Positions 6,524 to 64,000 of a DNA stretch of 64,000 bases are shown here, piece after piece. How positions within the stretch are numbered: position 1 is the first letter of the stretch; each line of letters starts with the position of its first letter. Below the pieces are notes generated by a model, which was not told the DNA's origin, ran no database searches, and saw only the letters and a list, made by a program, of their open reading frames with translations. The stretch lies in contig CBDFJF010000002.1 in NCBI GenBank assembly GCA_965248265.1, forward strand, positions 2,190,699 to 2,254,698, given 5' to 3'. Origin of the DNA: Candidatus Latescibacterota bacterium. GTDB taxonomy: Bacteria; Latescibacterota; UBA2968; UBA8231. Position numbers and translations under genes: made by a program.

Positions 6524-6571
6524 GCTCGGCCGGTACCTTTGTGGCGGCGATCGAAACGAATCAAAGAGCTT

Positions 6572-6648
6572 GTCGCTGCTTTGCACGATCAATGCTTGCG
6601 CTGTGCTCGTCGGGAAGACTCGGGTAGTCGAGCCGGCAGGTCACTTAG
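6572..6648. repeat. Repeat family R1, copy 1 (~77 nt core)
   Basis: tcgctgctttgcacgatcaatgcttgcgctgtgctcgtcgggaagactcgggtagtcgagccggcaggtc is ~85% identical to 13757-13830, and its core gggaaga.tc.ggtagt.cgagcc.gc.gg recurs at 28365-28412. In the other two copies this sequence lies immediately 3' of heparinase-like coding sequence. Confidence 0.6.
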
Positions 6649-6833
6649 GGAAATCTGTCGTGTCCAGACAGACCGCGAACTCGCCCTCTGCGTCGGCGTA
6701 CATCGCTCGGCGGACACGCCGTTGCGATCAGGACCGAGCCATTGCGGCCAGTCAGCTGCCGGCGTGTGCGCAGCACCGAAGAGAATGGCCGCACAAACGG
6801 CGAGAATGGCTCTTTTTTGTACACGAAGATAGT
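6640..6833 (-). pseudogene. N-terminal remnant of a secreted PQQ-like beta-propeller protein (signal peptide + DWPQWLGPDRNGVS motif), truncated
   Basis: Minus-strand frame after a TAG: ...LRVQKRAILAVCAAILFGAAHTPAADWPQWLGPDRNGVSAERC... The hydrophobic signal peptide followed by the hallmark D-W-P-x-(F/W)-x-G-x-x-x-R-T/N-G-x-S opening of PQQ-repeat/BamB-like propellers is clear. No start codon is present, and the frame decays after ~45 codons into the R1 repeat and then the start of the 1,281-aa gene. Confidence 0.4.
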
Positions 6834-9462: not shown

Positions 9463-11427
9463 TTGCATTACGTGGCGAACCGTTTACCGCTACAGCAGAC
9501 CCGATTCGTACATCTTCCCCTGGGGGCTACTCGACCGGAAGGATGGCTTCGTCATCAATTGCTGATCCAGGCCGATGGGTTGAGCGGATATGTGTACAGC
9601 GCCTTCGATGCGCCTACCTGGGCTGACCGGAGCAATTACGAGGAAGGGATTGTGGCCCTGGCCTATGTTCTCAATGATCAAAGACTGGAGCAAATAGCAA
9701 AGGCCATTGTAGATCGGGTGTTGGCATCCCCCCCGCGACCACAGGGCATGAATGTCTGCTACCAGCATCGCATGCGCATGCTTATTGAGTACCACGAGGC
9801 CACTAGTGATGTCCGTGTTATTCTGTGGTTGACCTCGTACTTTGAGGAGATTGCCGACACACCACTCTCAAGGCAGGAGATGGCGTATGGCGGAGACAAG
9901 GACCGAGCCGGCGAACATTTGATTCCTGCCTACTGGCTGTACAACCGCACGGGGAACCCGAAAATACTGGAGGCCATTCGCGTTAATTTCAGATCAGAAG
10001 TAGGTCTGGATAATATCGAGAGAGCTGTGGAGAGCTTCCTGAGTCCAGGACGCCGGTCCGACTTCTGGAATAACCACAGTGTTACCCTTGCCCAGGCGAT
10101 AAAGTTTCCGGGACTTCTGTACCAACAGTTCCCGGAGACTCGCTACGAGGAAGCGGTCTTTCACGGCATTGACATACTGGACCAATATTGCGGGCAGGTC
10201 GGAGGGCGATATGCCGGCCATGAACACTTGCCGGAAAGCAATGGCCACTCTCCTGCCAACGGCACCGAGTTGTGCACTGTCGCAGAGCAGATGTACTCGA
10301 TGCAACGGCTGTTTGAGATTTATGGTGACGTCAGGCTGGCAGACCGCATCGAATACCTGATGTTCAACTCCCATCCAGGCACCTGCACGCCGGACATGTG
10401 GACGCATCAATATGATCAGCAGGCCAATCAGGTTTCGGTGAGTGTAGCCGAGCGTGTCTTTGACAACAGTGACACCGCCAATATCTATGGTTTGGTTCCC
10501 CACTATCCATGTTGTCTGTCCAACATGCACCAAAGCTGGCCGCGATTTGTCGAATACCTGTGGATGGCCACGCACGACAACGGATTGGCAACGGTCGCCT
10601 ACGCCCCCAGTCGAGTCACGGCCAAAGCAGGCACCGACGGCGACGTGGTCACAATAATCGAGGAAACGGACTACCCCTTCGGAGGAGAGATCCTCTTCAG
10701 GCTGAAGATGGTCAAGCCCGTGGTATTCCCCCTGCACCTTCGAATTCCGAGCTGGGCGCACGGAACCACCATCGTCGTCGATGAAGAGGAAGTCCATCCT
10801 AAAGCCGGCAGCATTTATGCTCTAAAACGGTCGTGGCGGAACGACGATGTTGTCAGGCTCGTCTTTCCGATGAAGGTGAGAGTTGAAGAGCGGCATAGAA
10901 GGGCCGTTTCGATCCTCCGAGGGCCCCTCTATTTCTGTCTGCGAATAGGCCAGGAGTACCGTGAGTGCGCACATCACGCCAGGTTGATCCGAGAACAGAC
11001 GGGGTTTCCAGTGTATGACTGGGAGATTCACCCGACGACGCCGTGGAACTACGGGTTGATTGTCGATTGCCGGCATCCGGAGCGTTCAATCGAAGTCGTA
11101 ACTCACGAAGTCGCTCGTGTCCCGTTTGCCCAGAGAGGGGAGCCGCTTTTTAGAAGGGAAGATCCAGATACGCTGCCGAACTCAGCGGCGTGTGTTCATA
11201 GACCGATGCCGGCCATCGCTTTCAGGAGGGTCGAATGCCAGCACAAAGAGCCGGTGATCTTGAAGGTCAAAGGTCGCCTGATTCCCAGTTGGAAAATGGC
11301 GAGCGCGAGCGCCGCTGATCCACCGGAATCTCCGGTTCAGTCTGACCAGCCGATTGAGGATCTCGAGTTGATTCCGTATGGCTGCACGCGGTTGAGGATC
11401 TCGGAGTTCCCGGTTACTGTCAACTGA
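9463..11427 (+). CDS. glycoside hydrolase family 127-like (DUF1680; beta-L-arabinofuranosidase-type Cys/Zn enzyme)
   Basis: 654 aa. It has a TELC (Glu-x-Cys) motif and, ~80 residues downstream, a PHYPCC Cys-Cys pair, matching the Zn-ligand/nucleophile spacing of the GH127 HypBA1 enzyme (Glu338/Cys340 ... Cys417/Cys418), as recalled from memory. The C-terminal ...LIPYGCTRLRISEFPV tail is GH127-like. Confidence 0.65.
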   Translation: MHYVANRLPLQQTRFVHLPLGATRPEGWLRHQLLIQADGLSGYVYSAFDAPTWADRSNYEEGIVALAYVLNDQRLEQIAKAIVDRVLASPPRPQGMNVCYQHRMRMLIEYHEATSDVRVILWLTSYFEEIADTPLSRQEMAYGGDKDRAGEHLIPAYWLYNRTGNPKILEAIRVNFRSEVGLDNIERAVESFLSPGRRSDFWNNHSVTLAQAIKFPGLLYQQFPETRYEEAVFHGIDILDQYCGQVGGRYAGHEHLPESNGHSPANGTELCTVAEQMYSMQRLFEIYGDVRLADRIEYLMFNSHPGTCTPDMWTHQYDQQANQVSVSVAERVFDNSDTANIYGLVPHYPCCLSNMHQSWPRFVEYLWMATHDNGLATVAYAPSRVTAKAGTDGDVVTIIEETDYPFGGEILFRLKMVKPVVFPLHLRIPSWAHGTTIVVDEEEVHPKAGSIYALKRSWRNDDVVRLVFPMKVRVEERHRRAVSILRGPLYFCLRIGQEYRECAHHARLIREQTGFPVYDWEIHPTTPWNYGLIVDCRHPERSIEVVTHEVARVPFAQRGEPLFRREDPDTLPNSAACVHRPMPAIAFRRVECQHKEPVILKVKGRLIPSWKMASASAADPPESPVQSDQPIEDLELIPYGCTRLRISEFPVTVN

Positions 11428-11553
11428 AACGTGGTCGACTTCCGCCACGCTGTAACACCTTGAGGATCTGAGTCACCTGCACGAGCTCCTCAACAAGAAT
11501 CCGGTTCTGATGATAAACGGCATTGGGGACATCCATTTAACTCACCATAGCCA

Positions 11554-13713
11554 TCAGTCACCCAGCTCGAGCTGCACGTGCTGGATGTGGTCGTAACCCG
11601 GAGGCGCGCGAACCGGCTGGCGCTGACCCACCACCTCAACCCGCCCTCCCTCAGAGCTGAACCCGTATTCCCCGGCCTCCGGTAACACGAACCAGCTCGC
11701 CCCAGTCCGGTCTGCCTGCACCCCGAAGGGAGTGATCCCCTGCCCCTCGCGCGGCTCGACGAAAACCTGGGCACCCGCCACCGGCTCACCTCCCCGTGTC
11801 ACGTGCACCATCACCTCTGGCACCCGCGTCTCAGCCAGCGGACCCACATCTCTGCCCGCAATCCGTCGATACAGCTCGCGCGACCACTCCCATGTCGCCG
11901 TTCGCCGCGACATCTGCTCTTCCGGATCACACCAGTTGATATACAACACCGCCTTCCCCCATGCCTCCTGCGTCCCCTCCCCAAAAGGATCGATGCGCGC
12001 ATTCAGGCCCGACTGCGATGGCCAACTGATCTTCGGATGGACCGGCGCCATGAGGTTGCCCGGGTTCGAGTCCGTGAAGCCCCGAGTATCCTGGTCGATG
12101 AAGTAGAATGTTTGCAGCCCGTGGATCTTGCGTTCCGGCATGCTCTCCAGGAAGTCCAGCCAATCCTCCCCCTCCTTCATGGGTGGCGCTTCGTCATACC
12201 CCCAGGTCTTCTGCTCGAAGATGCCCGCCTCGCCCACGCGGATCGGCTTGACTGGCATCTCCGGATTCGAGCGGATAAAGTCAATCGTCTCCTCGATGTG
12301 CTCCCTGTCGCTGAACAGCCGGTAGCTGTCGATGAGCTCAACCAGCTCAGGTGAGGCACTCGTGTGATCGTAGGTAACCTCCCTGATGCGGGTCGAATCC
12401 AGCCCCTTCGCCCGCCGCAGCAGCGGCACGGCGAATCTCGGTTCCCGCGAATCGGTCACGTCCCAGAACAGGATGCTCGGATGGTTGCGATCTCGCCTGA
12501 TCCAGGTCTCGCAGATTGCCAGGTCGTTCTCGAGCACGATCTCGAGATCCTCCCCCTCCAGCTCCTCGTCCACCATGCCAGTGGCGACACAGAAGTTCGA
12601 CGACACCACGAACACACCCAGCTCGTCCGCTACCTCGTAGAGCACCGGCGGCGGGTCGTGGCGATGGTTTTCGACGATGCTGACATTGCCGTCGGCCAGG
12701 TCCACGAGTTTGCGCATCAACCACTGCCGCTCGTGCACGTAGGGCAGAGAGTGATCACCCCACGGCAAAAGCGGCTGCCCGTTGAGCAGCAGCTCCTCCC
12801 CCTCCGTCCACACCTCCCTGAAACCAAAGCGCTCGACGCGCGTGTGTGCCAGTACAGAATCACCCTCATTCCGCAGCGCCCCCTGCAGGAAATACAATAC
12901 GGGGTCCCCGTACGGGGGGCGCCCCCAGAGCACGGGATCCGCCCACGGCACGGAGACCCGCACCACCTGTTCCGATCCCGGTTCGAGCCTGAGTTCCTGG
13001 GAGGGCAGCTCGAGCTCGACCCCTCCTTCCCGGGTCACCACCAGGTCCAACACCGCCGAGGTTGTCGCCGGTGTCTCATTGCGCACCGTTGCTTCGACTG
13101 TCAGTGCTTTTTCCCGCACCGATGTCACCACGTAGAGATCCTCGATGCGCAGCCGCTTCTCCAGTAGCAGCCACACATCCCCCTCGATCCCGATGGTGCT
13201 CGAACCCATCTTCCACGTGTACGTATCGAGACCCGTCGCGACCAGTTCGCTGACCTCGTCAAGCTCGGGATGGACATAAGAGCCCGCGGAGTTGTGCGTG
13301 TAAATCAGCAGCTCGTATTCGCCACCCGCCTCCACCACCCCACGTAGTTGTACCTGCCACGGCGTCCGCATGCCGTGATGCTCACCGACGATGCGGTCGT
13401 CCAGGTACACCCGGCCGTAATGTCTCACTCGCGTCAGGTCGAGCAGCGGATCACTGCCGCGAAGATCCCAGTGTTCGGGCACCTGCAGGATTGTCCGGTA
13501 CCAGCCCGATGCCGGCGCCTCGGGTTCGAATTCTCTGGATCGGTGCGGCACCCGCACCCGCTGCCAATCATGGTCACGGGCCGGTGGCGACCCATCGGGC
13601 CCCTCCGTGAACTGCCACTCGCCGTTGAGCAGCAGACGGCTGCTTCCTGCGGGGTGCTCCAGTGACAATCGTGCCAAAGCCTCGCTCCTTTTCATCGCGT
13701 CGGTTGGACTCAA
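11554..13713 (-). CDS. glycoside hydrolase family 2 protein
   Basis: 719 aa. N-terminal sugar-binding domain (LLLNGEWQF, WYRTILQVPEHW, RVYLDDRIVGEHHG). TIM-barrel motif NHPSILFWDVTDS (compare NHPSIIMWSLGNE). Confidence 0.75.
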   Translation of the reverse strand: MSPTDAMKRSEALARLSLEHPAGSSRLLLNGEWQFTEGPDGSPPARDHDWQRVRVPHRSREFEPEAPASGWYRTILQVPEHWDLRGSDPLLDLTRVRHYGRVYLDDRIVGEHHGMRTPWQVQLRGVVEAGGEYELLIYTHNSAGSYVHPELDEVSELVATGLDTYTWKMGSSTIGIEGDVWLLLEKRLRIEDLYVVTSVREKALTVEATVRNETPATTSAVLDLVVTREGGVELELPSQELRLEPGSEQVVRVSVPWADPVLWGRPPYGDPVLYFLQGALRNEGDSVLAHTRVERFGFREVWTEGEELLLNGQPLLPWGDHSLPYVHERQWLMRKLVDLADGNVSIVENHRHDPPPVLYEVADELGVFVVSSNFCVATGMVDEELEGEDLEIVLENDLAICETWIRRDRNHPSILFWDVTDSREPRFAVPLLRRAKGLDSTRIREVTYDHTSASPELVELIDSYRLFSDREHIEETIDFIRSNPEMPVKPIRVGEAGIFEQKTWGYDEAPPMKEGEDWLDFLESMPERKIHGLQTFYFIDQDTRGFTDSNPGNLMAPVHPKISWPSQSGLNARIDPFGEGTQEAWGKAVLYINWCDPEEQMSRRTATWEWSRELYRRIAGRDVGPLAETRVPEVMVHVTRGGEPVAGAQVFVEPREGQGITPFGVQADRTGASWFVLPEAGEYGFSSEGGRVEVVGQRQPVRAPPGYDHIQHVQLELGD

Positions 13714-13756
13714 GATAGAATCTTAGACTGATTGATTTTGCAGGGGTGGCAGCGCA

Positions 13757-13960
13757 TCGCTGCTTTGCAGCATCAATTCTTGCGCTGTGCGGTTTGTCGG
13801 GAAGAATCCGGTAGTTCGAGCCTGCAGGTCGTGTCAGTTTCCCCGTTGCACCAACGAGACACTGTCGTGCACGAGGGCAGTACCGTACAGGAGCTCTGTA
13901 CACTGGAGCCCGCCTTCTCCATCGACAGGAGCGACGCAGGCTGTCCCCTCGAGAATAGGT
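13757..13960. repeat. Repeat family R1, copy 2 (includes a heparinase-like 3' coding remnant plus 3'-flank)
   Basis: ~80% nucleotide identity to 28365-28540 (the 3' end and downstream of the heparinase-like gene 28413..30677), and ~85% identity to 6572-6648 over the non-coding part. Confidence 0.65.
13825..13960 (-). pseudogene. C-terminal remnant (~45 codons) of a heparinase II/III-like gene
   Basis: The minus frame reads ...ILEGTACVAPVDGEGGLQCTELLYGTALVHDSVSLVQRGN*, which aligns with the C-terminus of the intact paralog at 28413..30677 (SFEGTACVVRLDREGGLHSAELVHGTALERDGVSLVQPGI*). Upstream coding sequence is replaced by the 235-bp R2 repeat at 13955. Confidence 0.6.
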
Positions 13961-14189
13961 CAAATAAGGAGTATTATCGTTAGTCTATTTCGGTGGTGTT
14001 GTGTTGTTGAGGGGTATTCGAGGTGGTCTGACGGCCGAACGAGCAGGTGTCGGTCCCGAACTGGCGGGTGTGAGGGTCGATTGGTTGAGCAGGGGCGGCC
14101 GATTGGCCGATGTCGGTAAATGCAAGGGCGGATTCGGGCGCAGGGCTTGCTCAGCGGACGCCAACGCCCGACTATCACCGCCCCTGTAT
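13955..14189 (+). repeat. Repeat family R2, copy A (235 bp)
   Basis: 234/235 identical to 20782-21016, in the same orientation. AT-richer 5' end (ATAGGTCAAATAAGGAGTATTATCG) followed by a GC-rich body containing short hairpins (e.g. CGGCC-GATT-GGCCG). No convincing ORF; track ORFs 14001..14210, 13960..14178 and 14110..14379 are repeat-encoded low-complexity reads. Confidence 0.8.
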
Positions 14190-14425
14190 CACACGGCGAA
14201 TTCGGATTGAGGTGAGGGTCGTGCCGCTGCGATCGATGGAGGGCGGGCCGGCAGCCCTACCCCTTCCAGGTAGCGCCGGATCAAGTGCGGCTCGGTCAGG
14301 GCGAGTGATTCTGCTTTCGGCTTCAAGTCGCAGAGGACATGCTGAGCGCAGGGATGTCACAAGCGCCGACTGGCCTTGAGAGGCCGTTGCGATGGCCTCT
14401 TCCCTTTCCGAAGATTCTGTCTATT

Positions 14426-15193
14426 ATGGACGACACTATGACAGAAGAAGAGAGATTCCTCTTCGACCTCGAGGGTTACCTGGTGGTGCCCGGTGTGCTC
14501 TCATCGCAGGAAGTGACACAGCTGAACGAGCTCGCCGACGAAGCCTGGCCCGGAGAGCACGACGAAACAGGTTTGCGTCGCACGTCGAACGTGTCGCAGT
14601 GGGGACCCCGCTTCCGCGACCTCATCGACCATACCAACATCGTGCCGTATCTGATCGAGCTTCTGGGTCCCAAGTTCCGCATCGATCACGACTACTGCAT
14701 GTTCATGCGCCGCGGAACCTCTCGCAGCCGCCTGCATGGAGGTCCCTCACCGCATAGCTACGAAGGCGACCACTGGTATCGCTTTCACCCCGACGGCACG
14801 ATCCGCAATGGTCTCACCGTCTTCACATACAATCTGAGCGACTGCGGTCCGGAGGATGGTGGCTTCGCCTGCGTACCAGGCAGCCACAAAACCAATCTGA
14901 GGTCGGGCATTCCGCAGGACGTGATCCGCTTCGAACGGGATGCTCACTATGTGCGGCAGCCTCCCGTCAAGGCGGGAGACGTCATCATCTTCACCGAAGC
15001 GTTGGTGCATGGCACGCTGGCCTGGGATGCCGACCACGAGCGCCGGGCTTTGCTGTACAAATACAGCCCCGGGCACTCATCCTGGAGCAGCACCTACTAC
15101 GATCCCGATGACTACCCGGGCGCCACGGAGCAGCAGATTCGCATCATGGCGGCGCCCTCAGTGGGGTCCCGGCCCGATTCAGTGCAGGTATGA
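14426..15193 (+). CDS. phytanoyl-CoA dioxygenase (PhyH) family Fe(II)/2-oxoglutarate oxygenase
   Basis: MDDTMTEEERFLFDLEGYLVVPGVLS... with jelly-roll motifs (HxD...H). Start taken at the internal ATG 14426 rather than the track start 14339. Confidence 0.75.
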   Translation: MDDTMTEEERFLFDLEGYLVVPGVLSSQEVTQLNELADEAWPGEHDETGLRRTSNVSQWGPRFRDLIDHTNIVPYLIELLGPKFRIDHDYCMFMRRGTSRSRLHGGPSPHSYEGDHWYRFHPDGTIRNGLTVFTYNLSDCGPEDGGFACVPGSHKTNLRSGIPQDVIRFERDAHYVRQPPVKAGDVIIFTEALVHGTLAWDADHERRALLYKYSPGHSSWSSTYYDPDDYPGATEQQIRIMAAPSVGSRPDSVQV

Positions 15194-15387
15194 ATGGTAA
15201 GACGAACTGTGACAGCGGCGAAATGGGACGCTGCAGTTGTGCCGTCTGTGTCATCGTACGAAAACCATCCTCCCTCGCCGAATCCTGAGATGACGGGGAT
15301 CTGCGATCCCGCGGGCGAGATTGGCTGCGAGCAGCCGTCAGCAGTGCTCGTCGCTGGCCCCACGGATTGGGGGTAGGCTGTGCGGGG

Positions 15388-16557
15388 TTACGATGGGGTC
15401 GTTGCCAGGCGGCCCAGTCTGGCGTCTTCGGCGGCCAGCCATTCGTAGTAGGGCCGCGGCAGAGGCTCAGGCAAGCCCAGACCGGCTTCCTCCCGCCACC
15501 GCAGCAATGGGTTGCGGCGATCCTCCTGTGGCAGATCCACGCGGCAGCCGTACGCCCCCGATTCGAAAATGGCCATCAGGATCTCGATCACGTGCCGGGC
15601 CTCTTTGCCGCTGCACTCGTGCTCGCGATTCTGGTCCAGGGCCTGTACGTATTCGTCGGCAAAACAGTAGTCGGCTTCATCGGCTGCGCCGTCAGGGTCG
15701 TATGTTTGCGCTGAGATCGGTTCGAGCGCCTGCCATTGACCGTCGCCTGTTGGTACGTCGTGCGGGACCGGAAGGTAATACGCGGCTCCGCTCTTCCAGA
15801 ACAACCTGCCTTCCGTGCCGTAGATCTCCAGACAGTAACCTGTGGAATCCACTTTGGGGAAACGGTGCTGTAGCAGCGTTCCGGTGACGTTCCCCTCGAA
15901 CTCCAGTGACGCAGTCGCACGCTCTCCCGCCACGTACCCCATGCCGCTGGCGGCTGGAACCACGTCGTTCGGAGTGATACGGCGTCCGTCTGTGAGCACC
16001 GTCGACGAGACGCTGCGACAATGGCCGGCGACTCCGATAATGTTGTTGAGCATGTGGGTTCCGATGTTCCTCAGTCCGTAACCGGCGTAGTACCCCTTAC
16101 CGCTACCGAGGAGATACCTGAGCTCGCCGATGCGCCCTTCATGTAGCGCTCGCTGCACGGCTCTGAAATGCCCGCCTGTCCTGCCCTGGTGATGGACGGC
16201 GATTCGCACCCCTTGCGACTGCGCCCGTGCCAGTAGCTTGTCAGATTGCTCCAGATCGACGCACATCGGCTTTTCGACGTCGATGTGCACTTTGTGTTCG
16301 AGTACGCCCATGGCCAACTCGTAGTGAAACTCGGTCCCTGTCGGGATGGCGACGATGTCCGGCTTTGTCTGCTCGATCATCTCGTGGTAGTCGTTAAACC
16401 GCGCAGGTACACCGAATTCTTCCCCCATCGCATCGAGTCGTTCCTGGACCAGATCACAAAGGCCGACCAGCTCGGTGCGGAGGTGCTGATCGTATCCTCT
16501 GGCGGCAGCTGTCCCCCGTCCTCGACAACCCAGAATAGCCACACGATACATCTTCAC
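15388..16557 (-). CDS. Gfo/Idh/MocA family oxidoreductase
   Basis: MKMYRVAILGCRGRGTAAARGY... N-terminal Rossmann fold plus C-terminal alpha/beta domain. Confidence 0.8.
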   Translation of the reverse strand: MKMYRVAILGCRGRGTAAARGYDQHLRTELVGLCDLVQERLDAMGEEFGVPARFNDYHEMIEQTKPDIVAIPTGTEFHYELAMGVLEHKVHIDVEKPMCVDLEQSDKLLARAQSQGVRIAVHHQGRTGGHFRAVQRALHEGRIGELRYLLGSGKGYYAGYGLRNIGTHMLNNIIGVAGHCRSVSSTVLTDGRRITPNDVVPAASGMGYVAGERATASLEFEGNVTGTLLQHRFPKVDSTGYCLEIYGTEGRLFWKSGAAYYLPVPHDVPTGDGQWQALEPISAQTYDPDGAADEADYCFADEYVQALDQNREHECSGKEARHVIEILMAIFESGAYGCRVDLPQEDRRNPLLRWREEAGLGLPEPLPRPYYEWLAAEDARLGRLATTPS

Positions 16558-16761
16558 TTATCAACTCCTTTGTTCGCATCAGTAGAATAGTCGTCAACGA
16601 AGAGCTCGAGTCTGGATTCGATGTTTAGTGGTTGCATTCGTCTTAGGGCTAAATGGTGGCGACAGAGGAAATCGTCGAGGAGACCGACAAGTATTACGAC
16701 TGGCGCGGGCGGGGGATCTTGTGCAAGGACGTAATCAGCCCTATTCCTGTGGAATGCTGAC

Positions 16762-17376
16762 GTGCGCCAGAACCCCATAATGGCCCTTGCTGTGGCAGCG
16801 GAGAACGTCTTGGCAGAGCAGGCCAGCCGCGAGGGTTCCCTGGACATCGACTCCCGATTGCAGCTGTTCGTCGATGACTACCTGGTAGACGAGCTGCACG
16901 GGACTCGACTCGTCCTCCACCACCCTCGTCCGGCAGGGGTGGCCCTGAGATTCGATCGGCCCTGGGAGGGTGCCTTCTGTGCCTACGTGACCGTGCTCCA
17001 CGTCGGCGACATCTACCGCATGTACTACCGGGGACAGCCCAACGCCATGCCGGACGGAAGCTTTGGCGAGGTGACCTGTTACGCCGAGAGCCGTGACGGG
17101 ATCCACTGGGAGAAGCCCGATCTGGGGCTGTTCGAGGTCGCAGGGACGCGGAAAAACAACGTCGTTCTGGGCTCCGAGTATGCGCCCGTGCCCACAACTT
17201 CATCGCGTTCGTGGACACTCGGCCCGGGATTCCTTCCTCCCAGAGATACAAGGGCCTGGGGGGCATGTTCCCCATATCCGAGGAGCAGCGCTTCAGCAAC
17301 GGCCTCCTGGGCTTCACCTCCGCGGACGGGATCCGATGGAGGAAGATCCAGCAGGCACCGAGAATAGACAAATAAG
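16762..17376 (+). pseudogene. GH43/GH130-like beta-propeller family gene, frameshifted and truncated (paralog of 34166..35572 and 46788..48272)
   Basis: Frame 1 (LQLFVDDYLVDELHGTRLV...YVTVLHVGDIYRMYYRGQ...AESRDGIHWEKPDLGLFEV...VLGSEYAP) matches the N-terminal third of the 494-aa paralogs. The family-like sequence then continues in another frame (AHNFIAFVDTRPGIPSSQRYKGLGGMFPISEEQRFSNGLLGFTSADGIRWRKIQQAPRIDK*) and stops at ~17376, far short of the ~490-aa full length. Confidence 0.55.
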
Positions 17377-17713
17377 TGGCGTTATGGTGAGTTTAGATCC
17401 GTCTGGGCCGTGGTGTCGAGCGCTTTTTGAACGGCGGAAGCCGGGTTTGAGGCCATCGACGGGCATTGAGAAGGAGAGGAATCCAGGGCTGAGCGTGTTT
17501 TTGTATCGGCCGCAGTTCTACTGCTGCGAAGACATGGACGGGGCACTCGAGCGGGCTCGCGCCGATGGCATCGAGCTCGACGAGGAGACGATCGAGCTCG
17601 CCTCGATGAAGGAAAAGGGGTAGCTGAAGGAGATCGTGAAAAAGTACACCGCGCCGATGCAGGGCCTTGGCTGAAGCCACGGACGGCTTATCTGTCGGCG
17701 CCTGAGCTCTCGC

Positions 17714-18799
17714 CTATCCGAGTCGCAGCGAGCGATCCTCCAATGGCAGATTGACCCGGACGTTTCCGCGGCGGTGGGATTCTCTCATGGCGATGGCGAT
17801 CTCCAGCGCTTCGCGGCCGAACTCGCCGGGGCAGATGCGCTCCTTCCCGGCATCGATCGAGCGGCAGACTCCTTCGATGGCGTCGACCATGGAGCTGCGC
17901 GGATGCCAGGGGTTGGGAAACTGGCGCTGCACCGACGCTCCCGTTTCAGGATCCGTCGTCCACAGCTCGAACTGCGCGTGAGCGTTGCGCGACACGATGC
18001 GGCCGACGTCGCCTATGAACTCATGCGTCCATTGGCGACCGCCGTCACTCTCGGATCGTGAGTTGAGAAAACCTCGGACGCCGTTTTCGTACACGATGTA
18101 CCCGGAGCCGCACAGATCGCTCTCGGCGACCGCCTCTGCGTCGCTGTCCATGTGGCCGAAGACCCATTGGGCCGGAGCGTCGGCGAACAGTCGCATCAGA
18201 GAGAGCATGTGGCTGCCCATGTTTGACAGACCTGAGGCGCTGTGGCAGATCATCGAGCGCAACTCGCCGATGGTGCCGTCGGCGATGGCCTGACGGGCGT
18301 TCGTATACCAGCCGTACCAGTTCAGGTGGCAGGCCATGGCGAGAATGGTGTTGTGTCGACGGCAGGCGTCGATCATGGCGTCCGCCTCGGCCAGGGTGCG
18401 ACACATCGGTTTGGTGGCGAAGATCGCTTTCACGCCTGACTCGGCCAGACCGACGACGACATCGGCCCGCTCCGCCGGCCGCGTGGTCACGGCGACGAGA
18501 TCCGGCTTCTCCTTCTCGACCATCTCGCGGTAGTCGAGGTAGAGCGCCTCGACCTTCCAGCGGCGGCGGAAGTCATCGAGCTTGGCCTGGTCGATGTCGG
18601 CCGCGGCCACGAGCTCGGCGCCGCGCGCCTCGATGATGGCCGGCGCGTGGGCCCACGGCCACGGATAGTGGGCCATGCCGATGTGCTCGTCGTCAATGGT
18701 GCTGCCCATGCGGCCGCAGCCGACGACGGCGGCGCGGTAGATTTTTGACGGCCGCGTCTCCTCGATAATGCGAAACGCTTCGCCTCGGACTCGAGCCAT
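17714..18799 (-). CDS. Gfo/Idh/MocA family oxidoreductase
   Basis: ...KIYRAAVVGCGRMGSTIDDEH... 361 aa. Confidence 0.8.
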   Translation of the reverse strand: MARVRGEAFRIIEETRPSKIYRAAVVGCGRMGSTIDDEHIGMAHYPWPWAHAPAIIEARGAELVAAADIDQAKLDDFRRRWKVEALYLDYREMVEKEKPDLVAVTTRPAERADVVVGLAESGVKAIFATKPMCRTLAEADAMIDACRRHNTILAMACHLNWYGWYTNARQAIADGTIGELRSMICHSASGLSNMGSHMLSLMRLFADAPAQWVFGHMDSDAEAVAESDLCGSGYIVYENGVRGFLNSRSESDGGRQWTHEFIGDVGRIVSRNAHAQFELWTTDPETGASVQRQFPNPWHPRSSMVDAIEGVCRSIDAGKERICPGEFGREALEIAIAMRESHRRGNVRVNLPLEDRSLRLG

Positions 18800-18825
18800 G
18801 ATTGCGGATTAGTCGAAAGACCGAC

Positions 18826-20463
18826 TCAAGCGCCGGCGACGTGCAGTTGGACGCCGTCCACGAGAATGGGCGTCTGCATCGACTCGTCCCGCCTGCTCAG
18901 CTTGAGCTCGAGCGTGTTCCCGCCGCGCCGGACCTGGGACGGGTCCAGTCCGCACTCCAGCCATCCACCTCCCTGCGCCGTCCTTGCGACGGACTGGACC
19001 TCCTCGAGGGGCCGGTTGTTCAAAGCCACATTCAGCTCGTCGCCGTCGGTGAGATCCCACAGGTGCAGACGGAATCGCAGCCTCTGCGGATCCGCCGACG
19101 ACAGATCGTCACCCACCTGGAACGACAGCTCGACCGGGCGCCCCGGCGTCAGCCCGACGTTTTCTGCGGTCTCGAACCGCCCGCGTTCGCCCGTGACCTC
19201 GTCTCCGAGAAACCGGTCGACCCCGAAGAGCTTCTCCTTGCCCGCCATCGTCTCGGGATCGCCGATCTCGAACCAGGTCTCGGGCACGCCGAGGCCCGGA
19301 TTGAAAACGTAAACACCATCGGCACCGTCGTTGAAGACGTTCGTCGCCACCGCCCGCCACACCGCCGGCCGGCCCTCCCACTCGTTGAAGACGACGATGT
19401 ATGTGGGCTTGCCGAGGCGCTCTGGCTGGCCGCCGTAGAGCGTCTTGAGCCACGAACTGAAGGCCCTGTGCTCCCCAGCGCCCAGCGCCAGGTAGACCCA
19501 CTGGCCCCAGAAGGCCCACTGCAGGCAGGGGTAGACCGGTACTTCGTGTCGGTGTCCGAAGTCGATGATATCGCGGAACGAGTCGCACATCGGTGAATCC
19601 TCGTTGCCGCCCGGCATCAGCTTATCGATCAGATTCTCGCCCAGCCAGGTCTCCAGGTCGACGCCGACGAACAGCGAGTCCTCGAGTGTGGCCGGCGTGT
19701 GTGCTGCCAGCAGCAGCGGCCGGCCTCTTCTGGCGCCGACCTCGTCGGCCATCCGGCGAATGCGGCGCACGAAGTCGTTCATCACTTCCACGTGCTCCTC
19801 GCTCACCGGCAGACCCTCGCGCGACTCGCGGAAGTACGGGTGGTACTTGAAAAATTCCATGGCGATGACGTCGACGTCGTAGTTCTCGGCCACTTCCTCG
19901 ATGACGGCGAAGTAGTGATCCCGCACCTCCTTGGCGCCGTAGTCGAGGCCCGACCACGCCTCGCCGGACTCGAAGTCATCCAGCTCGCCCATCATGCATT
20001 CGGGATGCTCGCGCTTGAACGGGGCGAGACCGTAGGAAGTCCAGCGTCTCGAACCCGGGGCGTAGGAGTCGTGGATGTCGTTCATGCGCAGCGACCAGCC
20101 GAACTCCATGCCGTGCTCGCGGCTGAAGTCCTGCTGCACCTGCACCGTATCCTTGCCGTACTGGTCGATGAGCTCCTGCGGCATTCCCCTGCCGATGAAA
20201 CCGCCCAGTTTCGTGTGGTGGGAGAACGTCAGACCCGCCATGCAGCTGCAGAACCAGTTGCTGTCCACCTGGGAGCCGATCAGCGGCGTGCTTCGCGCCT
20301 GCAGGAAGTCACCCATAAGCTCCCCGCTGGTGCGCACCGTCAGGCCCTCGGCGACGTCGTGTTCGCTCTCGGCGCCGTCACGCGCGTAGATGGCATCGTC
20401 GCCGTCGTTGTTGTAGATGATCCGCCGGCGTCTCCAGCGCGCTGCCCTTCGAGCTTCGTCCAC
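18826..20463 (-). CDS. hypothetical protein, possibly glycosidase-like (N-terminal RIIYNNDGDD motif, C-terminal beta-sandwich-like tail)
   Basis: 545-aa ORF with coherent high-GC codon usage; no family recognised with confidence. Confidence 0.45.
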   Translation of the reverse strand: MDEARRAARWRRRRIIYNNDGDDAIYARDGAESEHDVAEGLTVRTSGELMGDFLQARSTPLIGSQVDSNWFCSCMAGLTFSHHTKLGGFIGRGMPQELIDQYGKDTVQVQQDFSREHGMEFGWSLRMNDIHDSYAPGSRRWTSYGLAPFKREHPECMMGELDDFESGEAWSGLDYGAKEVRDHYFAVIEEVAENYDVDVIAMEFFKYHPYFRESREGLPVSEEHVEVMNDFVRRIRRMADEVGARRGRPLLLAAHTPATLEDSLFVGVDLETWLGENLIDKLMPGGNEDSPMCDSFRDIIDFGHRHEVPVYPCLQWAFWGQWVYLALGAGEHRAFSSWLKTLYGGQPERLGKPTYIVVFNEWEGRPAVWRAVATNVFNDGADGVYVFNPGLGVPETWFEIGDPETMAGKEKLFGVDRFLGDEVTGERGRFETAENVGLTPGRPVELSFQVGDDLSSADPQRLRFRLHLWDLTDGDELNVALNNRPLEEVQSVARTAQGGGWLECGLDPSQVRRGGNTLELKLSRRDESMQTPILVDGVQLHVAGA

Positions 20464-20557
20464 GACTCAGCCTTTCTGCATTTCTATGCGTGGCGTGTCA
20501 AAATCCGCCATGGTCAGTTCAAATCGCGCCAGTAGTGCTCGAGCTCGACGGCTGCCG

Positions 20558-20781
20558 TCACCAGTCCACGACGGCACCGTCGTCTCCGCTGTACGATTCC
20601 GGATTTGCCCCGTTATCCTCATCGCCGTTCCGCAGTGCGTCGTCGAGATAGTCGTCGTCGAGCTCGACACCCAGCCCCGGTCCGGTCGGCAGTTTGAGGA
20701 ATCCGTCCTCCACTGCGAACGGTTCCTTCAACACGCCTTCCCCCGGCCGCAATACGCCGGCTCCTTCCTGGATCAGGGAGT
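20558..20781 (-). pseudogene. C-terminal remnant of an enolase-superfamily (mandelate racemase/muconate lactonising enzyme/sugar-acid dehydratase) gene
   Basis: The minus frame reads ...LIQEGAGVLRPGEGVLKEPFAVEDGFLKLPTGPGLGVELDDDYLDDALRNG...*, the characteristic C-terminal tail of MR/MLE-family enzymes. Only ~75 codons remain. Upstream coding sequence ends abruptly at the R2 copy B boundary (20782). Confidence 0.55.
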
Positions 20782-21016
20782 ATAGGTCAAATAAGGAGTA
20801 TTATCGTTAGTCTATTTCGGTGGTGTTGTGTTGTCGAGGGGTATTCGAGGTGGTCTGACGGCCGAACGAGCAGGTGTCGGTCCCGAACTGGCGGGTGTGA
20901 GGGTCGATTGGTTGAGCAGGGGCGGCCGATTGGCCGATGTCGGTAAATGCAAGGGCGGATTCGGGCGCAGGGCTTGCTCAGCGGACGCCAACGCCCGACT
21001 ATCACCGCCCCTGTAT
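20782..21016 (+). repeat. Repeat family R2, copy B (235 bp)
   Basis: 234/235 identical to 13955-14189 (single T/C difference in gtgttgt[t/c]gagggg). Confidence 0.8.
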
Positions 21017-21287
21017 GATTGGCACGGGAAGCTCCACGACGTCGTCTACGGCGCCTGCTCGTTCCCGCCCTCGTGCCGGGTCGATGACCCGCAGACACAG
21101 GAAGGCGCCATTCTCGCGCACGCCGTTGTTCTCAGGGGAGCAACAAATCGGCAGCTACGAGCGCTTCTGGGACGGGCGCGACGACGCCCGCAGGCTGGCG
21201 CCTCCGGGTGTATACCTGTATCAACTGACCACGAAGACCCACGAGCGCCGCTTCGTCGAGACCGGAGAGGTGCGCCTGGTTTACTGA
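21017..21287 (+). pseudogene. C-terminal remnant of a T9SS type-A sorting (Por-secretion C-terminal) domain protein
   Basis: ...LFSGEQQIGSYERFWDGRDDARRLAPPGVYLYQLTTKTHERRFVETGEVRLVY* fits the consensus tail of T9SS CTDs (..G.H...WDG.D..G..L.SGVYFY.L.AG.FVETKKMVLLK). The upstream half of the domain is in a different frame (degenerate). The gene is truncated on its 5' side exactly at the R2 end. Confidence 0.55.
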
Positions 21288-21288
21288 C

Positions 21289-23274
21289 CTACCAGACGTG
21301 GACGCGGTGGCCCTCGTCGGGGAACCAGATGCCGTCGACGATGCCGGACAGTGCTACGGCCGCAGCGTAACCCAGGCCTAATCCGTAGAACAGGGGCTTA
21401 CCTCTCTGGTAAGCCTGCACCCCTCCGTAGCGCAGCAGGGCGGCCTTGATGACCCACACGAGGAGCAGGCTGAACCAGTAGTTTGCCGGGCCCGCGGCGT
21501 TCTGGAAGGCGAGACCGACTGGATGCAGCGGGAACCAGTGAAAGCGGCTGCGCAGATAGGCGAGAGCTCCGGCCTCTGACATGCCCGCCACCCACACGCC
21601 CCACTTGCCGATGTCGAACACCCTGGGATGCTGCACCAGGTTGGCAGTCTGTGGGTAGACGTTGAAAGCGTGGATCAGGTGGACGGCGCCCCCCTGGTCG
21701 TAGGCGACTTCGATGCTGGCCCAGGCCGCCACCAGGCAGCCGATCGTGAAGGCGATGAGGACGACGGCGCAGACGCGGCCGCGTTGCCGGCGCAGCGAGA
21801 ATATGCGCAGGTGGTGGGGGATCGCGGGCCAGGCCGGAAGGCGGATGTTGCCGAAGAAGGCCTGGCTCGTGAACAGCTTGAACGCCACCACGTTCTTCGT
21901 CGATAGGATGCTGGAGCCGACCAGTTCGGTGATGAAGGAGCCGCCCTTCATGTTGGCCCAGCTCGGCATCAGGTAGGGGAAGCCCGTGGCGGCGATCAGC
22001 TTGACCGTGACGAAAAACGTCATCGCCATGAGCAGGAACGTGCACACGGCTAGGGGCACCGTCGCCCCGAGGCTGACGCCGAAGCCGATGACGTAAACGG
22101 CTGACAACGTCATTCCGATGAAAGCAAGCCGATACATTCCGACCTGTCCGGCATCGCCGGTGCCGCCCCTGACCTGTCGCCAGACCTGGCCGAGATGGCG
22201 TCGCGCCAGCCATACCGACCAGATGGCGATGAGGACGATGGCGCCGAAACTCTCCAGATGCAGGATGTCGGAACTGATCAAGCGCTGGCCGGAAGCGCCG
22301 ACGCTGACCCCGAATTGATCCATGGCCCCCAACTTGAAGACGGAGAGCAGGTAGAAGAGGATGATGCTGCCCAGGATGTCGAGCGGGCACAGGTAGGTCA
22401 CCGCCAGCACAAGGGGCAGGATGCGGATGGTCAACGCCGGAAAGGGCTGCGGCAAGGGGATGGTGTAGCGCTCGCGGAAGACCTCCACCATGGGCGCGCC
22501 CGGGCTGAAATAGGTGGCGATGTTGTAGAGCAACGGCAGGAAGACGATGCCGAAGCCGGCCCAGAACAGACTGGAGCGGAACAGCTCCGGCATGCGCCGG
22601 GGACCGTCGAAGCCGCGCGTCAGTTCGAGGGGCATCTGAGCCAGTGGAAAGGTGAGCTTCTCGTTGTCCACCCACTGGCGGTGGAAGAGGATCATCAGAC
22701 AGAGTCCGAACACGACCATGGCCAGCGAAGCTCCGCCCCACTGCGCGATGATGCCGATCCACACGTCCCACGGAATTGAAGCGCCATCCGGCAGGCCCAG
22801 CCACAGGGGATCGATGACGCGTGGCTCGGGCCCGGGAAAGGCGTTCCACGGCATGAAGGGGACGATGAGGGTGTCCCACTGGTTCTCCGGCGTCGGCATG
22901 AAGGACGGCGCGCCCAGTATGGCGACCCAGTAGTCGCTCCACCCCCACATCGGCAGCGCCCCGACGATCCAGGTCATCGAGAACACGGTGAGCAGCTCGC
23001 CGCGACTCAGGGCCACGCGCGGCCACACCCGTTTGAGGGCCACGTTGAAGAACAGCCACAGCACGAAGGGGATGACGGCCACCATCGGGTACTGCGACTG
23101 CACGAGGTTGATCCCCATGAACAGGATCAGGTAATAGAACCAGACTGCGATGGTAACGGCCCCGACGAGGACTCCGCGCCAGGTGATCGTCAGCTTGTCG
23201 TCTTCGGCCGGTAAGTCAGACCCCCGACTCGCGTGGGGCTGGGTTACGTCAGCTGCTTGAGCGGGGTCGGGCAA
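21289..23274 (-). CDS. uncharacterised polytopic membrane protein (~14 TM), paralog 1 of a two-member family in this window
   Basis: 661 aa, highly hydrophobic with many predicted TM helices. It shares conserved blocks with 31916..33832, e.g. TPENQWDTLIVPFMPW versus TPENNWETLIHPHIPTW, VALSRGELLTVFSMTWIVGALP versus LALKREELALIFVMMLVSASIP, and similar C-terminal tails. The start appears to be TTG (no in-frame ATG before the first TM helix). The 553-aa alternate-frame ORF 21398..23059 is a GC artifact. Confidence 0.6.
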   Translation of the reverse strand: MPDPAQAADVTQPHASRGSDLPAEDDKLTITWRGVLVGAVTIAVWFYYLILFMGINLVQSQYPMVAVIPFVLWLFFNVALKRVWPRVALSRGELLTVFSMTWIVGALPMWGWSDYWVAILGAPSFMPTPENQWDTLIVPFMPWNAFPGPEPRVIDPLWLGLPDGASIPWDVWIGIIAQWGGASLAMVVFGLCLMILFHRQWVDNEKLTFPLAQMPLELTRGFDGPRRMPELFRSSLFWAGFGIVFLPLLYNIATYFSPGAPMVEVFRERYTIPLPQPFPALTIRILPLVLAVTYLCPLDILGSIILFYLLSVFKLGAMDQFGVSVGASGQRLISSDILHLESFGAIVLIAIWSVWLARRHLGQVWRQVRGGTGDAGQVGMYRLAFIGMTLSAVYVIGFGVSLGATVPLAVCTFLLMAMTFFVTVKLIAATGFPYLMPSWANMKGGSFITELVGSSILSTKNVVAFKLFTSQAFFGNIRLPAWPAIPHHLRIFSLRRQRGRVCAVVLIAFTIGCLVAAWASIEVAYDQGGAVHLIHAFNVYPQTANLVQHPRVFDIGKWGVWVAGMSEAGALAYLRSRFHWFPLHPVGLAFQNAAGPANYWFSLLLVWVIKAALLRYGGVQAYQRGKPLFYGLGLGYAAAVALSGIVDGIWFPDEGHRVHVW

Positions 23275-28364: not shown

Positions 28365-28540
28365 GGCGCGTTTCGTGGGAAAGATTCGGGTAGTCGAGCC
28401 GGCGGGTGGCCGTCAGATTCCCGGTTGCACCAACGAGACACCGTCGCGCTCGAGGGCCGTGCCGTGCACGAGCTCTGCCGAATGCAGCCCACCTTCTCGG
28501 TCGAGACGAACGACGCAGGCTGTCCCCTCGAATGAGACTC
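28365..28540. repeat. Repeat family R1, copy 3 (3' coding end + 3' flank of intact heparinase-like gene)
   Basis: Homologous to 13757-13960 (~80%), and to the core of 6572-6648. Confidence 0.6.
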
Positions 28541-36550: not shown

Positions 36551-36603
36551 CTGCAACGCGAGGGCACCGCAGTGACCGGCGTCGCTGTTGGATGAACGTT
36601 GCT

Positions 36604-36700
36604 TCAGTTTCCAACAGGCTCAGCAACGTGCCCGAAGGTTTGCCCAAGTCGTGAGATCGCATCCAGCGGAAGCGGGCCTTTCTCAATGTGCACGTCTTCT
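36604..36700 (-). pseudogene. 3'-terminal remnant (~30 codons) of an aldo/keto reductase gene
   Basis: ...SSEDVHIEKGPLPLDAISRLGQTFGHVAEPVGN* matches the C-terminus of the intact AKR at 40729..41697 (EEDVQIIEKGPLPPAAISRLGQTFGHIAEPVGN*). Nucleotide homology extends ~30 nt past the stop (36575-36700 versus 40690-40815). Confidence 0.65.
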
Positions 36701-36789
36701 GAGCTGATAGGACGCCCTGCGTTGAGTTTGAAGCGGGTGCTGCATATCGGCTCGTACCAGACCGCCTGGGCGATGCTACACCGGCTGCT

Positions 36790-36920
36790 CGGTGACGGAT
36801 AGCAACGATTAGGGACCATTACCGATAGACCAAACCGGCGGTTGAGGGCTGCGTTGGGGCGATCGAGGTGTGGGTGGGATGGTTTGGCGGGGGATGAGTG
36901 TCGTGGTCGGGCGACGACCC
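36790..36920 (+). repeat. Repeat family R3, copy a (~130 bp)
   Basis: ggatagcaacgat...ccattacc.atag.ccaaa.cggcggttgag.gct...ggtgtgggtgggatggtttggcgggggatg.gtgtcgtggtc.ggcgacgac is ~85% identical to 39908-40040, in the same orientation. Confidence 0.7.
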
Positions 36921-37067
36921 TCACCCGCCCCCGCAAGCCCAAAGTACCCATCCCGTCCATCACAAAAGCTCAGATTTTCATTCAACACCAAGCCGCGCGG
37001 GCGATCTTGACTACCTGTAACGGGCCCTTATCGTTCTTATCCGTGATAGTCGAGACGAGCCGTGTAG

Positions 37068-37268
37068 CGGTGGCGGCGGGTCGAGCGGGCTTACAGCTAC
37101 TGCGCCAGCAACGACCCTCGTGTCCACTGCGGGTTGGGAGCCGCGACGGTGGTGGACAAGGTCACCGTGTACTGGTCGGACGGCACCACGAGCGAATTCG
37201 GACCTCTCGAGGTCGACGGACTCACGTCCTCCACCGAGACTAGGAGCCTGTCCGAGTATTCGCTTTGA
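37068..37268 (+). pseudogene. C-terminal remnant of an ASPIC/UnbV (CRTAC1-like, FG-GAP) domain protein
   Basis: ...RAYSYCASNDPRVHCGLGAATVVDKVTVYWSDGTTSEFGPLEVDGLTSS...* matches the UnbV_ASPIC C-terminal consensus (SGYLSQ.D.RLHFGLG.AT.VD.VEVRWPSGTTQ...). It starts right after an in-frame TAG, and only ~65 codons remain. Confidence 0.55.
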
Positions 37269-37325
37269 CAGGCGGCATTACAGAATTCTCAGCGAAACAG
37301 GAGCCACGGCAGCTTCTGAAGCTCT

Positions 37326-39907: not shown

Positions 39908-40040
39908 AACGGATAGCAACGATCTCTTTAGGCCATTACCAATAGTCCAAAACGGCGGTTGAGTGCTTGGTTGGTGCGATTGGGGTGTGGGTGGGATGGT
40001 TTGGCGGGGGATGGGTGTCGTGGTCTGGCGACGACGGGCG
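39908..40040 (+). repeat. Repeat family R3, copy b
   Basis: Begins 5 nt after the stop of the fused MFS/spermidine-synthase gene. ~85% identical to 36790-36920. Confidence 0.7.
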
Positions 40041-40159
40041 CCCGGTGGGGAAGGTGGGGGCGGATTTTCTGCGATCTTAGCCGGTTTTGAGGCCGACGGA
40101 TCAGAGCTGGACGCAGCCGTGCCCGGGCGCGCGGCCGTCGCATGTGCCGTGGCCTGGAT

Positions 40160-40690
40160 TCAACCGCGCTGAACTCGAGCTTGGTTTGCGGCGGTGATCT
40201 CGGTGGCGCGATGGGTGGCGGTTGATCGGGCAGGACCCACGCCCTGCAGGTATCGACGAATGGAGGCGGGCTCGGTAAGGGCGGCGATGACCCGCATGCG
40301 TCCGCCACAGCGATCGCAGGTGCTGACGTCGATGGAAAAAACCCTCGCCAGCAGGACAGCCCACGCGAGTCTTTGCGGCATGTGGTGGGGGCACGGATCG
40401 CGGTCCTCGCCGCACGGCTCGGGGGGCTCCTGCTGCGGCACGATCTTGTCGCGGTCGCGGGCGCTGGGGGCGAGGATGCCATGATAGCGGATGAGATTGA
40501 CCCGGGGTGGAGGCACGAGGGCGGCGAGTTTTTCCAGCAACTCATGGGGCGTGACACCGTGCACGGAGGCGGCGGTGAGGGCGGCCAGCAGGGGCTCCTA
40601 GTCGGCGAGGGGATCGGCCTGGGAATCGTCGAGCAGGCCGCGTTTGGTGCACAGCCGGATGACGCGACGAGCCGTGGTCTCGACGATCTG
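40160..40690 (-). mobile_element. IS91-family (HUH-Y2 rolling-circle) transposase gene fragment: C-terminal ~175 codons with an internal TAG; pseudogene
   Basis: The minus frame reads ...LRQIVETTARRVIRLCTKRGLLDDSQADPLAD*EPLLAALTAASVHG...NLIRYHGILAPSARDRDKIV...RLAWAVLLARVFSIDVSTCDRCGGRMRVIAALTEPASIRRYLQGVG.... These are hallmark C-terminal blocks of IS91/ISCR Y2 transposases (AASVQGR, RIRYYGFLANR, CP.CGG.MR.IA.I). The N-terminal two thirds (Zn-finger, HUH, catalytic Tyr pair) are missing; the fragment ends at the junction with the duplicated AKR 3' end. Confidence 0.65.
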
Positions 40691-40728
40691 CCGCAGTGAC
40701 CGGCGTCGCTCTTGGATTGAACGCTGCT

Positions 40729-63978: not shown

Positions 63979-64000
63979 CGCTTCTCGTTGTAGAACTCGA

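Follow-up and report, generated by a model that had tools for sequence, protein, structure and literature searches.

A 239-bp repeat at the breakpoints of truncated genes in a Candidatus Latescibacterota genome: a candidate transposase-free insertion element

When several genes break off beside the same short sequence, what is that sequence, and how did it come to lie there? The question arises in a 64-kb stretch of the genome of a Candidatus Latescibacterota bacterium (64,000 nucleotides of contig CBDFJF010000002.1, hereafter the window), in which a repeat denoted R2 occurs in two near-identical copies, A and B, and in a third, decayed copy that is new relative to the initial annotation. Each R2 copy sits where a gene stops abruptly. 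The explanation we favour, and regard as about equally apt to be right or wrong, is that R2 is a discrete, non-coding insertion element of 239 bp, lacking a transposase and terminal inverted repeats, and that adjacent gene segments were lost by deletion mediated by the element or by its repeats. Statements that a copy or a gene is absent refer to the window unless another collection is named. The three copies are as follows.

Positions 13951 to 14189, plus strand: R2 copy A, the full 239-nt unit, with head GAGAATAGGTCAAATAAGG... and tail ...CACCGCCCCTGTAT (repeat search, blastn and printed alignment).
Positions 20778 to 21016, plus strand: R2 copy B, the full 239-nt unit, differing from copy A at 20781 (T) and 20835 (C) (repeat search, blastn and printed alignment).
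Positions 17358 to 17432, plus strand: third R2-like copy, decayed, with only the head (~75 nt) clearly alignable and opening on the terminal bases of the full copies, GAGAATAG-ACAAATAAG.

Copies A and B are direct repeats, 99% identical over 239 nt, and blastn and the alignment place their two mismatches at 13954 (A/T) and 14008 (T/C). The 235-nt repeat with one mismatch described in the initial annotation (13955-14189 and 20782-21016) is contained in this alignment and is borne out by it. So is the contrast drawn there between near-identical repeats and diverged paralogous surroundings: the remaining repeats in the window are paralogous gene segments, 71-92% identical. The third copy is about two-thirds identical to the others over the head, and the remainder of the unit is lost or scrambled there. 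No further full copy was found in the 64 kb (blastn with 7-nt words), and a head profile search returned no additional R2 heads in the window or in related loci. Weak R2-like matches at 36806-36870 and 39935-40066 lay within background (z 2.4-2.8) and were rejected.

What marks R2 as a unit is the constancy of its ends, which read GAGWATAG... at the left boundary and ...CCTGTAT at the right. The first bases, GAGWATAG, are common to three different left flanks (...CCCCTC, ...ATCAGG and ...GGCACC), and the last bases, ...CCCCTGTAT, precede two different right flanks (CACACG... and GATTGG...). All four flanks of copies A and B are mutually unrelated, and three of them are 3' stumps of genes. Because three copies share the left end and two the right end against unrelated flanks, we take R2 to be a discrete inserted unit. 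Simple segmental duplication, which would have left two sites with intact homologous flanks, does not describe this locus, since the flanks are not homologous.

All three copies lie within 7 kb and in the same orientation. Their starts (13951, 17358 and 20778) are almost evenly spaced, by 3407 and 3420 nt, the third copy beginning no more than 7 nt from the midpoint of the other two. Tandem 3.4-kb units were considered as the source of this spacing and rejected: the intervals have no collinear homology, and the two Gfo genes they contain are 26% identical and stand at different offsets. No R2 copy is present at the next positions predicted from a 3.4-kb spacing; the even spacing is probably due to chance.

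The identity of the flanks of copies A and B carries much of the argument, and three gene remnants were recognized there.

Positions 13835 to 13952, minus strand: 3' stump of a heparinase II/III-like gene, its last ~39 codons, cut at the head of copy A.
Positions 20558 to 20777, minus strand: 3' stump of a sugar-acid dehydratase gene (enolase superfamily), its last 72 codons and stop, cut at the head of copy B.
Positions 21018 to 21287, plus strand: 3' stump of a gene with a FlgD-Ig-like or type IX secretion system (T9SS)-type C-terminal domain, conserved part 21126-21284, cut at the tail of copy B.

The heparinase stump is 65% identical in amino acids and 83% in nucleotides to the 3' end of an intact gene at 28413-30677, and the similarity stops at 13952, that is, at the first bases of copy A; the decapitated heparinase-like gene of the initial annotation is confirmed by this match. 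For the enolase-superfamily stump to the left of copy B, Pfam gave MR_MLE_C (positions 189-218 of 219, E 9e-7), while NCBIfam gave galactonate dehydratase (positions 330-382 of 382, E 6e-7). To the right of copy B is an 89-codon open frame, the last ~53 codons of which (21126-21284) resemble FlgD-Ig-like repeats and the very C-terminal ends of other proteins. One example is P0309 (541-593 of 593, 57% identity, E 8e-9), and weak Pfam matches to FlgD_ig and CHU_C were also obtained. A T9SS-type C-terminal stump, as had been proposed, is plausible on these similarities but has moderate support only and is the weakest of the three identifications. The right flank of copy A (14190-14425, upstream of PhyH) contains no recognizable gene remnant; candidate readings of that flank as the N-terminus of the heparinase, or as the native spacer between heparinase and PhyH genes, were rejected for lack of similarity. 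In all three stumps the frame stays open as far as the young R2 copies, in keeping with recent truncation.

From an ATG within R2, a frame extends past the tail in copies A and B alike (14110-14379 and 20937-21287). In copy B this frame is in phase with the T9SS-type stump, and the source annotation calls a 67-aa open reading frame (ORF) there, P0241, starting at 21084. All of these are most likely spurious ORFs or remnants.

The third copy adds an older junction of the same kind, for which relatives of the broken gene are available.

Positions 16780 to 17357, plus strand: 5' fragment of a glycosidase-like gene, ~195 codons with one frameshift near 17190, ending at the head of the third copy.
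Positions 17432 to 17623, plus strand: stretch right of the third copy that shows codon periodicity on the plus strand and closes with a stop; no homologue was found.

With R2 as query, nhmmer gave a weak match at 17361-17430, and the third copy can be aligned from the very first R2 bases (GAGAATAG-ACAAATAAGTGGCGTTATGGTGAGTTTA as against GAGAATAGGTCAAATAAGGAGTATTATCGTTAGTCTA) over ~75 nt; whether it extends towards ~17510 is doubtful. When both strands were scanned exhaustively by local alignment, the third copy was the best non-self match, with a score of 48 (next-best 42; background mean 22.6, sd 4.2), and it stood at z 6.7 relative to shuffles. Taken together, the local alignments place it at 48-50 on a background whose mean is 23-25 (sd ~4). 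A 24-base pattern built from shared positions matched the three copies and nothing in shuffles, the pattern having been chosen post hoc. The broken glycosidase-like gene reads ...ADGIRWRKIQQAP in its true frame and then runs into the R2 head; its full-length homologues are 400-450 aa long and continue ...EEPLITEGAFDSQN... (...EEPLIT...). The window is 89% identical to loci L005-L008 over 16932-17355 and 84.5% identical to L009-L011 over 16843-17355. In both cases identity ends at 17355-17357, where the relatives read on in frame (...EEPLIG...) and the window reads the R2 head. This comparison of the third-copy locus with uninterrupted relatives is the nearest we have to a pairing of occupied and empty sites. 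It also assigns GAGW to R2 instead of the target: at that point the uninterrupted relatives have ACTG or CCTC. The stretch at 17432-17623 is probably another orphan 3' stump.

With relatives' proteins as queries, neither the missing 3' part of the glycosidase-like gene nor the missing 5' part of the dehydratase was found anywhere else in the window, which argues for deletion and against local rearrangement. In L005-L008 (long-read contigs from the European Nucleotide Archive, around 10001-11726), the glycosidase-like relatives (89% nucleotide identity) are themselves split into two or three ORFs and lie among an IS91-type Y2 transposase, two or three reverse-transcriptase genes, and DDE transposases. 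The glycosidase-like gene may travel with mobile DNA.

R2 itself has the features of non-coding DNA. Its GC content is 0.58 overall and 0.66 in the body, the head being richer in AT, much as initially described. Over codon positions the GC of the body is flat (0.65, 0.68 and 0.64); the real genes and the stumps are strongly periodic. No homologue was found among 5.8 billion proteins when the four long frames were joined as one peptide query, and no Pfam match was obtained for ORFs that cross R2. The earlier view that R2 holds no credible ORF therefore stands. So does the lack of terminal inverted repeats, as judged from a comparison of the head, GAGAATAGGTCAAAT, with the reverse-complemented tail, ATACAGGGGCGGTGA. 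The element is asymmetric in structure, with a single palindromic end.

Positions 14120 to 14189 (20947 to 21016 in copy B), no strand: imperfect palindrome of ~68 nt, inverted repeat I1, ending at the last base of R2.

This palindrome, the one significant structure in R2, folds better than shuffled sequence on both strands (RNA fold z -3.4 and -3.5; DNA fold z -1.9 and -2.6) and, since the hairpin folds equally well on either, is best regarded as a DNA palindrome. The head forms no hairpin as DNA on either strand (z +0.2 and +1.1), nor is there one in the third copy. Short in-phase direct repeats occur inside R2 (14035-14071, 14075-14106 and 14162-14189): CCGAACnnGCnGGTGT and GGYCGATTGG each occur as a pair, at distances of 21 and 22 nt respectively, and two adjoining CAMCGCCC..TAT units stand at the tail. 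These could be protein-binding sub-sites. R2 gave no blastn match to plasmid and phage collections, and vector or control DNA was rejected as its source on that basis.

The head may also carry a signal. A consensus scan of 13500-21500 returned three sigma-70-like sites where 1.3 were expected, two of which are minus-strand sites at homologous positions in copy B and the third copy.

Positions 20809 to 20837, minus strand: sigma-70-like promoter match TCGACA-17-TAGACT in copy B, a consensus match only, reading out of the head towards the GHL10-Gfo genes.
Positions 17390 to 17419, minus strand: sigma-70-like match TCGACA-18-TAAACT in the third copy, at a position homologous to the site in copy B.

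Between these two sites 11 of the 12 hexamer bases are kept; the spacer has diverged. The equivalent site in copy A (13982-14010) has TCAACA as its -35, and the sole difference between copies A and B in the body of R2, at 14008, falls in this box. Beyond the stumps, intact minus-strand genes lie in line with each head: a GH2-like gene (11554-13713) on the side of copy A, a Gfo/Idh/MocA gene (15388-16557) beyond the third copy, and, beyond the dehydratase stump of copy B, the GHL10-like gene and the second Gfo/Idh/MocA gene (17714-18799), which together span 20463-17714. These matches hint weakly that the R2 head may carry a conserved outward sigma-70-like promoter that transcribes the intact genes beyond the stumps. 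It is attractive to suppose that such a promoter would take the place of the one that disappeared along with the decapitated gene.

How could such a locus have formed? The most economical mechanism we can infer has two steps, insertion into a gene and then loss of the DNA beside it. R2 would have been moved by a transposase encoded elsewhere in the genome and would have inserted into genes of the polysaccharide-utilisation cluster, after which neighbouring DNA would have been lost. Two routes of loss can be envisaged. One is adjacent deletion mediated by the element; the other is homologous recombination between R2 copies in the same orientation, which would leave one copy joined to two unrelated flanks. 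Insertion sequences are established examples of both routes. As the flanks come from different genes, any target duplication, if ever made, must have been separated or deleted. The very different ages of the copies indicate that the process recurred, and the reproduction of both end points points to a discrete insertable unit, not to independent deletions, filler DNA or segmental duplication. Copies A and B, being near-identical and in the same orientation, would now be a substrate for the loss or amplification of a 6.8-kb block. Of the interpretations in the initial annotation, that of a non-autonomous mobile or recombinogenic element is the one favoured here, and it is strengthened by the third copy, which begins at the same first base, at a fourth gene breakpoint confirmed against uninterrupted relatives. 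The other two, a pair of attachment sites (attL/attR) and an RNA gene, found no support, as described below.

Several observations weigh against an insertion element. No R2 copy is a simple insertion with both halves of a gene; each lies between stretches of DNA that were originally apart. Support for the third copy comes from a moderate score (48, the next-best being 42) and from positional coincidences, not from an overwhelming alignment. Beyond the window, exact-pattern scans did not find the 24-mer of the R2 head in public genome or metagenome contigs, the tail-stem pattern in metagenome contigs, or the tail 28-mer in viral contigs, and R2 is absent from 11 related loci. The hairpin-less head is a poor fit to the IS200/IS605 pattern. 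The promoter comes from the consensus scan only, and the GH2-like gene on the side of copy A has a conserved upstream region of its own. Neither the window nor the 11 loci yielded an autonomous TnpA/TnpB element sharing the R2 ends, and no empty site was found through relatives of the 545-aa gene, the best of which are 56-64% identical and not syntenic.

The alternative that survives best does without mobility. R2 might be filler DNA, copied from a master locus into the junctions of double-strand-break repair by templated insertion or gene conversion, with the flanking genes resected. Such a process would account for the fact that every copy stands at a deletion junction and never as a clean insertion, and it sits well with a window that has no transposase and with the lack of R2 copies in the public collections scanned. 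Filler should have variable end points; instead, three copies share their start base and two their end base. A much older copy at a further junction, moreover, implies a recurrent process tied to the sequence of R2. We consider filler unlikely.

Copies A and B might instead be the attL/attR pair of an integrative element now degraded, or direct repeats at the ends of a composite or translocatable unit that carries the block they enclose.

Positions 14190 to 20777, no strand: 6.6-kb block between copies A and B, with PhyH (plus), Gfo/Idh/MocA (minus), the broken glycosidase-like gene and the third R2 copy, Gfo/Idh/MocA (minus), the GHL10-like gene of 545 aa (minus) and the dehydratase stump.

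Near-identical direct repeats do bracket a gene block, and Campbell-type integration of an R2-bearing circle into a chromosomal R2 would give the same picture. This arrangement is nevertheless improbable, for neither block nor window holds an integrase, recombinase or transposase (Pfam scans of essentially every gene), and there is no tRNA in the window. The outer flanks are stumps of heparinase-like and T9SS-type genes, so that joining them rebuilds no target. The genes of the block are of the families present in the surrounding paralogous clusters and have a similar GC content at third codon positions (GC3; 0.71-0.86, and 0.64-0.87 outside), as expected of chromosomal genes, and a third R2-like copy lies inside the block. 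The attL/attR candidate of the initial annotation is accordingly set aside, whereas its description of the block's contents (PhyH, two Gfo/Idh/MocA genes, a broken glycosidase-like gene and a 545-aa gene, here GHL10-like, with no recombinase) is upheld by the Pfam scans.

Less probable again is an artefact of assembly, in which the contig joins non-adjacent loci through the repeat or the assembler has duplicated it. The data are metagenome-derived, and related contigs bear the names of long-read assemblers and contain frameshifted ORFs. The source, however, is a single 4.14-Mb contig, and individual long reads in such assemblies would span a 239-bp repeat, as they presumably did here if the contig was assembled like its relatives. 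Both sides also belong to the same type of paralogous cluster (heparinase, PhyH and DUF6785 families, as at 28.4-34 kb), and no assembler could have produced a third copy that has diverged independently and lies at a junction of homologous kind. The single large contig and the old diverged copy together make a collapsed assembly unlikely.

Least probable of all is a duplicated gene for a small structured RNA or a cis-regulatory RNA, as once proposed: R2 does have a GC-rich body, a strong tail hairpin and a predicted 13-bp helix rich in G-U pairs (14075-14108, plus strand only), but no Rfam match reached gathering score in the window (at E<=10, a single chance-level match of 14 bits against a gathering score of 45 on 13800-14450, and none on 17300-17720), the whole unit folds no better than shuffles (z -0.8 and -0.5 on the two strands), the tail hairpin is equal on both strands, and what the old copy keeps is the unstructured AT-rich head, not the structured body.

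Returning to the insertion element, its consequences would reach beyond this locus if it were mobile. A very small, transposase-free repeat would then prune and rewire carbohydrate-degradation clusters in a bacterial lineage of which little is known (four or five genes are truncated within 7 kb), and the near-identical direct copies predict instability of the 6.8-kb block. For annotation, orphan ORFs beside R2 (e.g. the 67-aa P0241) are to be read as gene remnants. A bolder extension, which we offer as a long shot, is that R2 represents an undescribed family of elements without inverted repeats or transposase in an uncultured bacterium of the Fibrobacteres-Chlorobi-Bacteroidetes (FCB) type, one end AT-rich, unstructured and highly conserved with an outward promoter, and the other palindromic. 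Such elements would remove the first genes of polysaccharide-utilisation operons and replace their promoters, acting as both mobile promoter and driver of deletion. Even so, the find is a modest one: it adds a case to a known kind of element and opens no long-standing question.

The surroundings of R2 offer some further observations. By Pfam content the window encodes glycosidases, oxidoreductases, PhyH, DUF6785, sulfatases, transporters and a HigB/HigA pair. For the 545-aa gene neighbouring the broken glycosidase-like gene, no relative exceeded 64% amino acid identity. Three paralogous clusters were recognized (13.8-23.3, 28.4-35.6 and 46.8-50.7 kb), sharing heparinase II/III-like, PhyH, DUF6785/DUF6784 membrane-protein and glycosidase-like (34088/46788) families at 26-44% amino acid identity; the cluster that bears R2 is the decayed one of the three. 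A conserved non-coding stretch of ~95 nt lies upstream of the GH106-like and GH2-like genes (6569-6650 and 13753-13835), with a 34-nt core that is 91% identical, and its right-hand part recurs after the stop of the intact heparinase gene (28373-28411, 89%). The stretch resembles an operon-junction or promoter region common to the paralogous clusters. Another decayed heparinase 3' end may be present at ~6645-6700.

Elsewhere, two short copies of gene 3' ends stand next to each other in swapped order (36567-36688 and 36816-36927) upstream of a 927-aa spermidine-synthase-like gene (37120-39903). Their sources are at 40691-40813 and 39933-40044; one copy is 92-96% identical to an aldo-keto reductase gene (40729-41697) and the other 87% identical to a 209-aa gene (39928-40557). 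The pair places direct repeats on either side of the 927-aa gene and gives rise to a chimeric ORF of 119 aa (36604-36963). The region of the 927-aa gene has a GC content of 0.54-0.57, as compared to ~0.62 elsewhere, and the similarity of the site of these 3'-end copies to the R2 head is not significant. A single open frame that is cut off by the edge of the window (63418-63999) matches a HigB-like toxin domain and a helix-turn-helix (HigA-like) antitoxin domain, and may comprise two adjacent genes.

How does R2 compare with known systems? Some classes can be set aside on their defining features. The cassettes of integrons have attC sites with GTTRRRY core sites at their boundaries; the boundaries of R2 (GAGWATAG... 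and ...CCTGTAT) contain no such core, and it was rejected as a cassette or attC site. RNAs represented in Rfam, including group II introns and omega or HEARO-type RNAs, were rejected for want of a covariance-model match. [quoted passage not shown] R2 is likewise short and non-coding, but having no inverted termini it is not a MITE in the strict sense. Three copies lie in the window and none turned up in the public collections scanned, and the flanks of every copy come from different genes.

Other elements resemble R2 in what they do to neighbouring DNA. With IS26 and IS1, adjacent deletion and recombination between copies in the same orientation leave one copy joining the original flank to distant DNA, the intervening genes being lost. 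R2 shows this outcome, an element joined to an original flank on one side and to distant DNA on the other, but elements of the IS26/IS1 type encode their own transposase and have inverted ends, whereas R2 is non-coding and without them. Rolling-circle elements of the IS91/ISCR type have no inverted termini, make no target duplication, possess structured ends and rearrange adjacent DNA, with GTTC/CTTG (GAAC/CAAG) as target. R2 shares the lack of inverted termini, a structured end and the rearranged neighbourhood, but no target of the GTTC/CTTG type is present in any flank and no Y2 transposase in the window. A Y2-transposase gene of the IS91 type does lie near the homologous glycosidase-like gene in L005, L007 and L008; R2 has no similarity to those loci.

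Closest to R2 are the palindrome-associated transposable elements (PATEs) of Haloquadratum walsbyi, transposase-free derivatives of the IS200/IS605 type. PATEs have no inverted terminal repeats, carry near-terminal palindromes, make no target duplication, are too short for a transposase and are prone to repeat-mediated deletion (PMC3119063). Like them, R2 is too short to encode a transposase, lacks terminal inverted repeats and has a palindrome near one terminus, the tail; its members, too, differ greatly in age and conservation and are associated with repeat-mediated deletions. Unlike PATEs, R2 has no palindrome at its head and no common target oligonucleotide of 4-5 nt beside it (the left flanks end in CTC, AGG and ACC). 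No partner of the IS200/IS605 type is known for it, only three copies have been seen, and the host is a bacterium and not a haloarchaeon. Membership in the PATEs thus fails on two tested features, the head palindrome and the common target. What the sequence suggests is similarity to PATEs or to small mobile repeats, and R2 would fall within the general kind of small transposase-free insertion elements.

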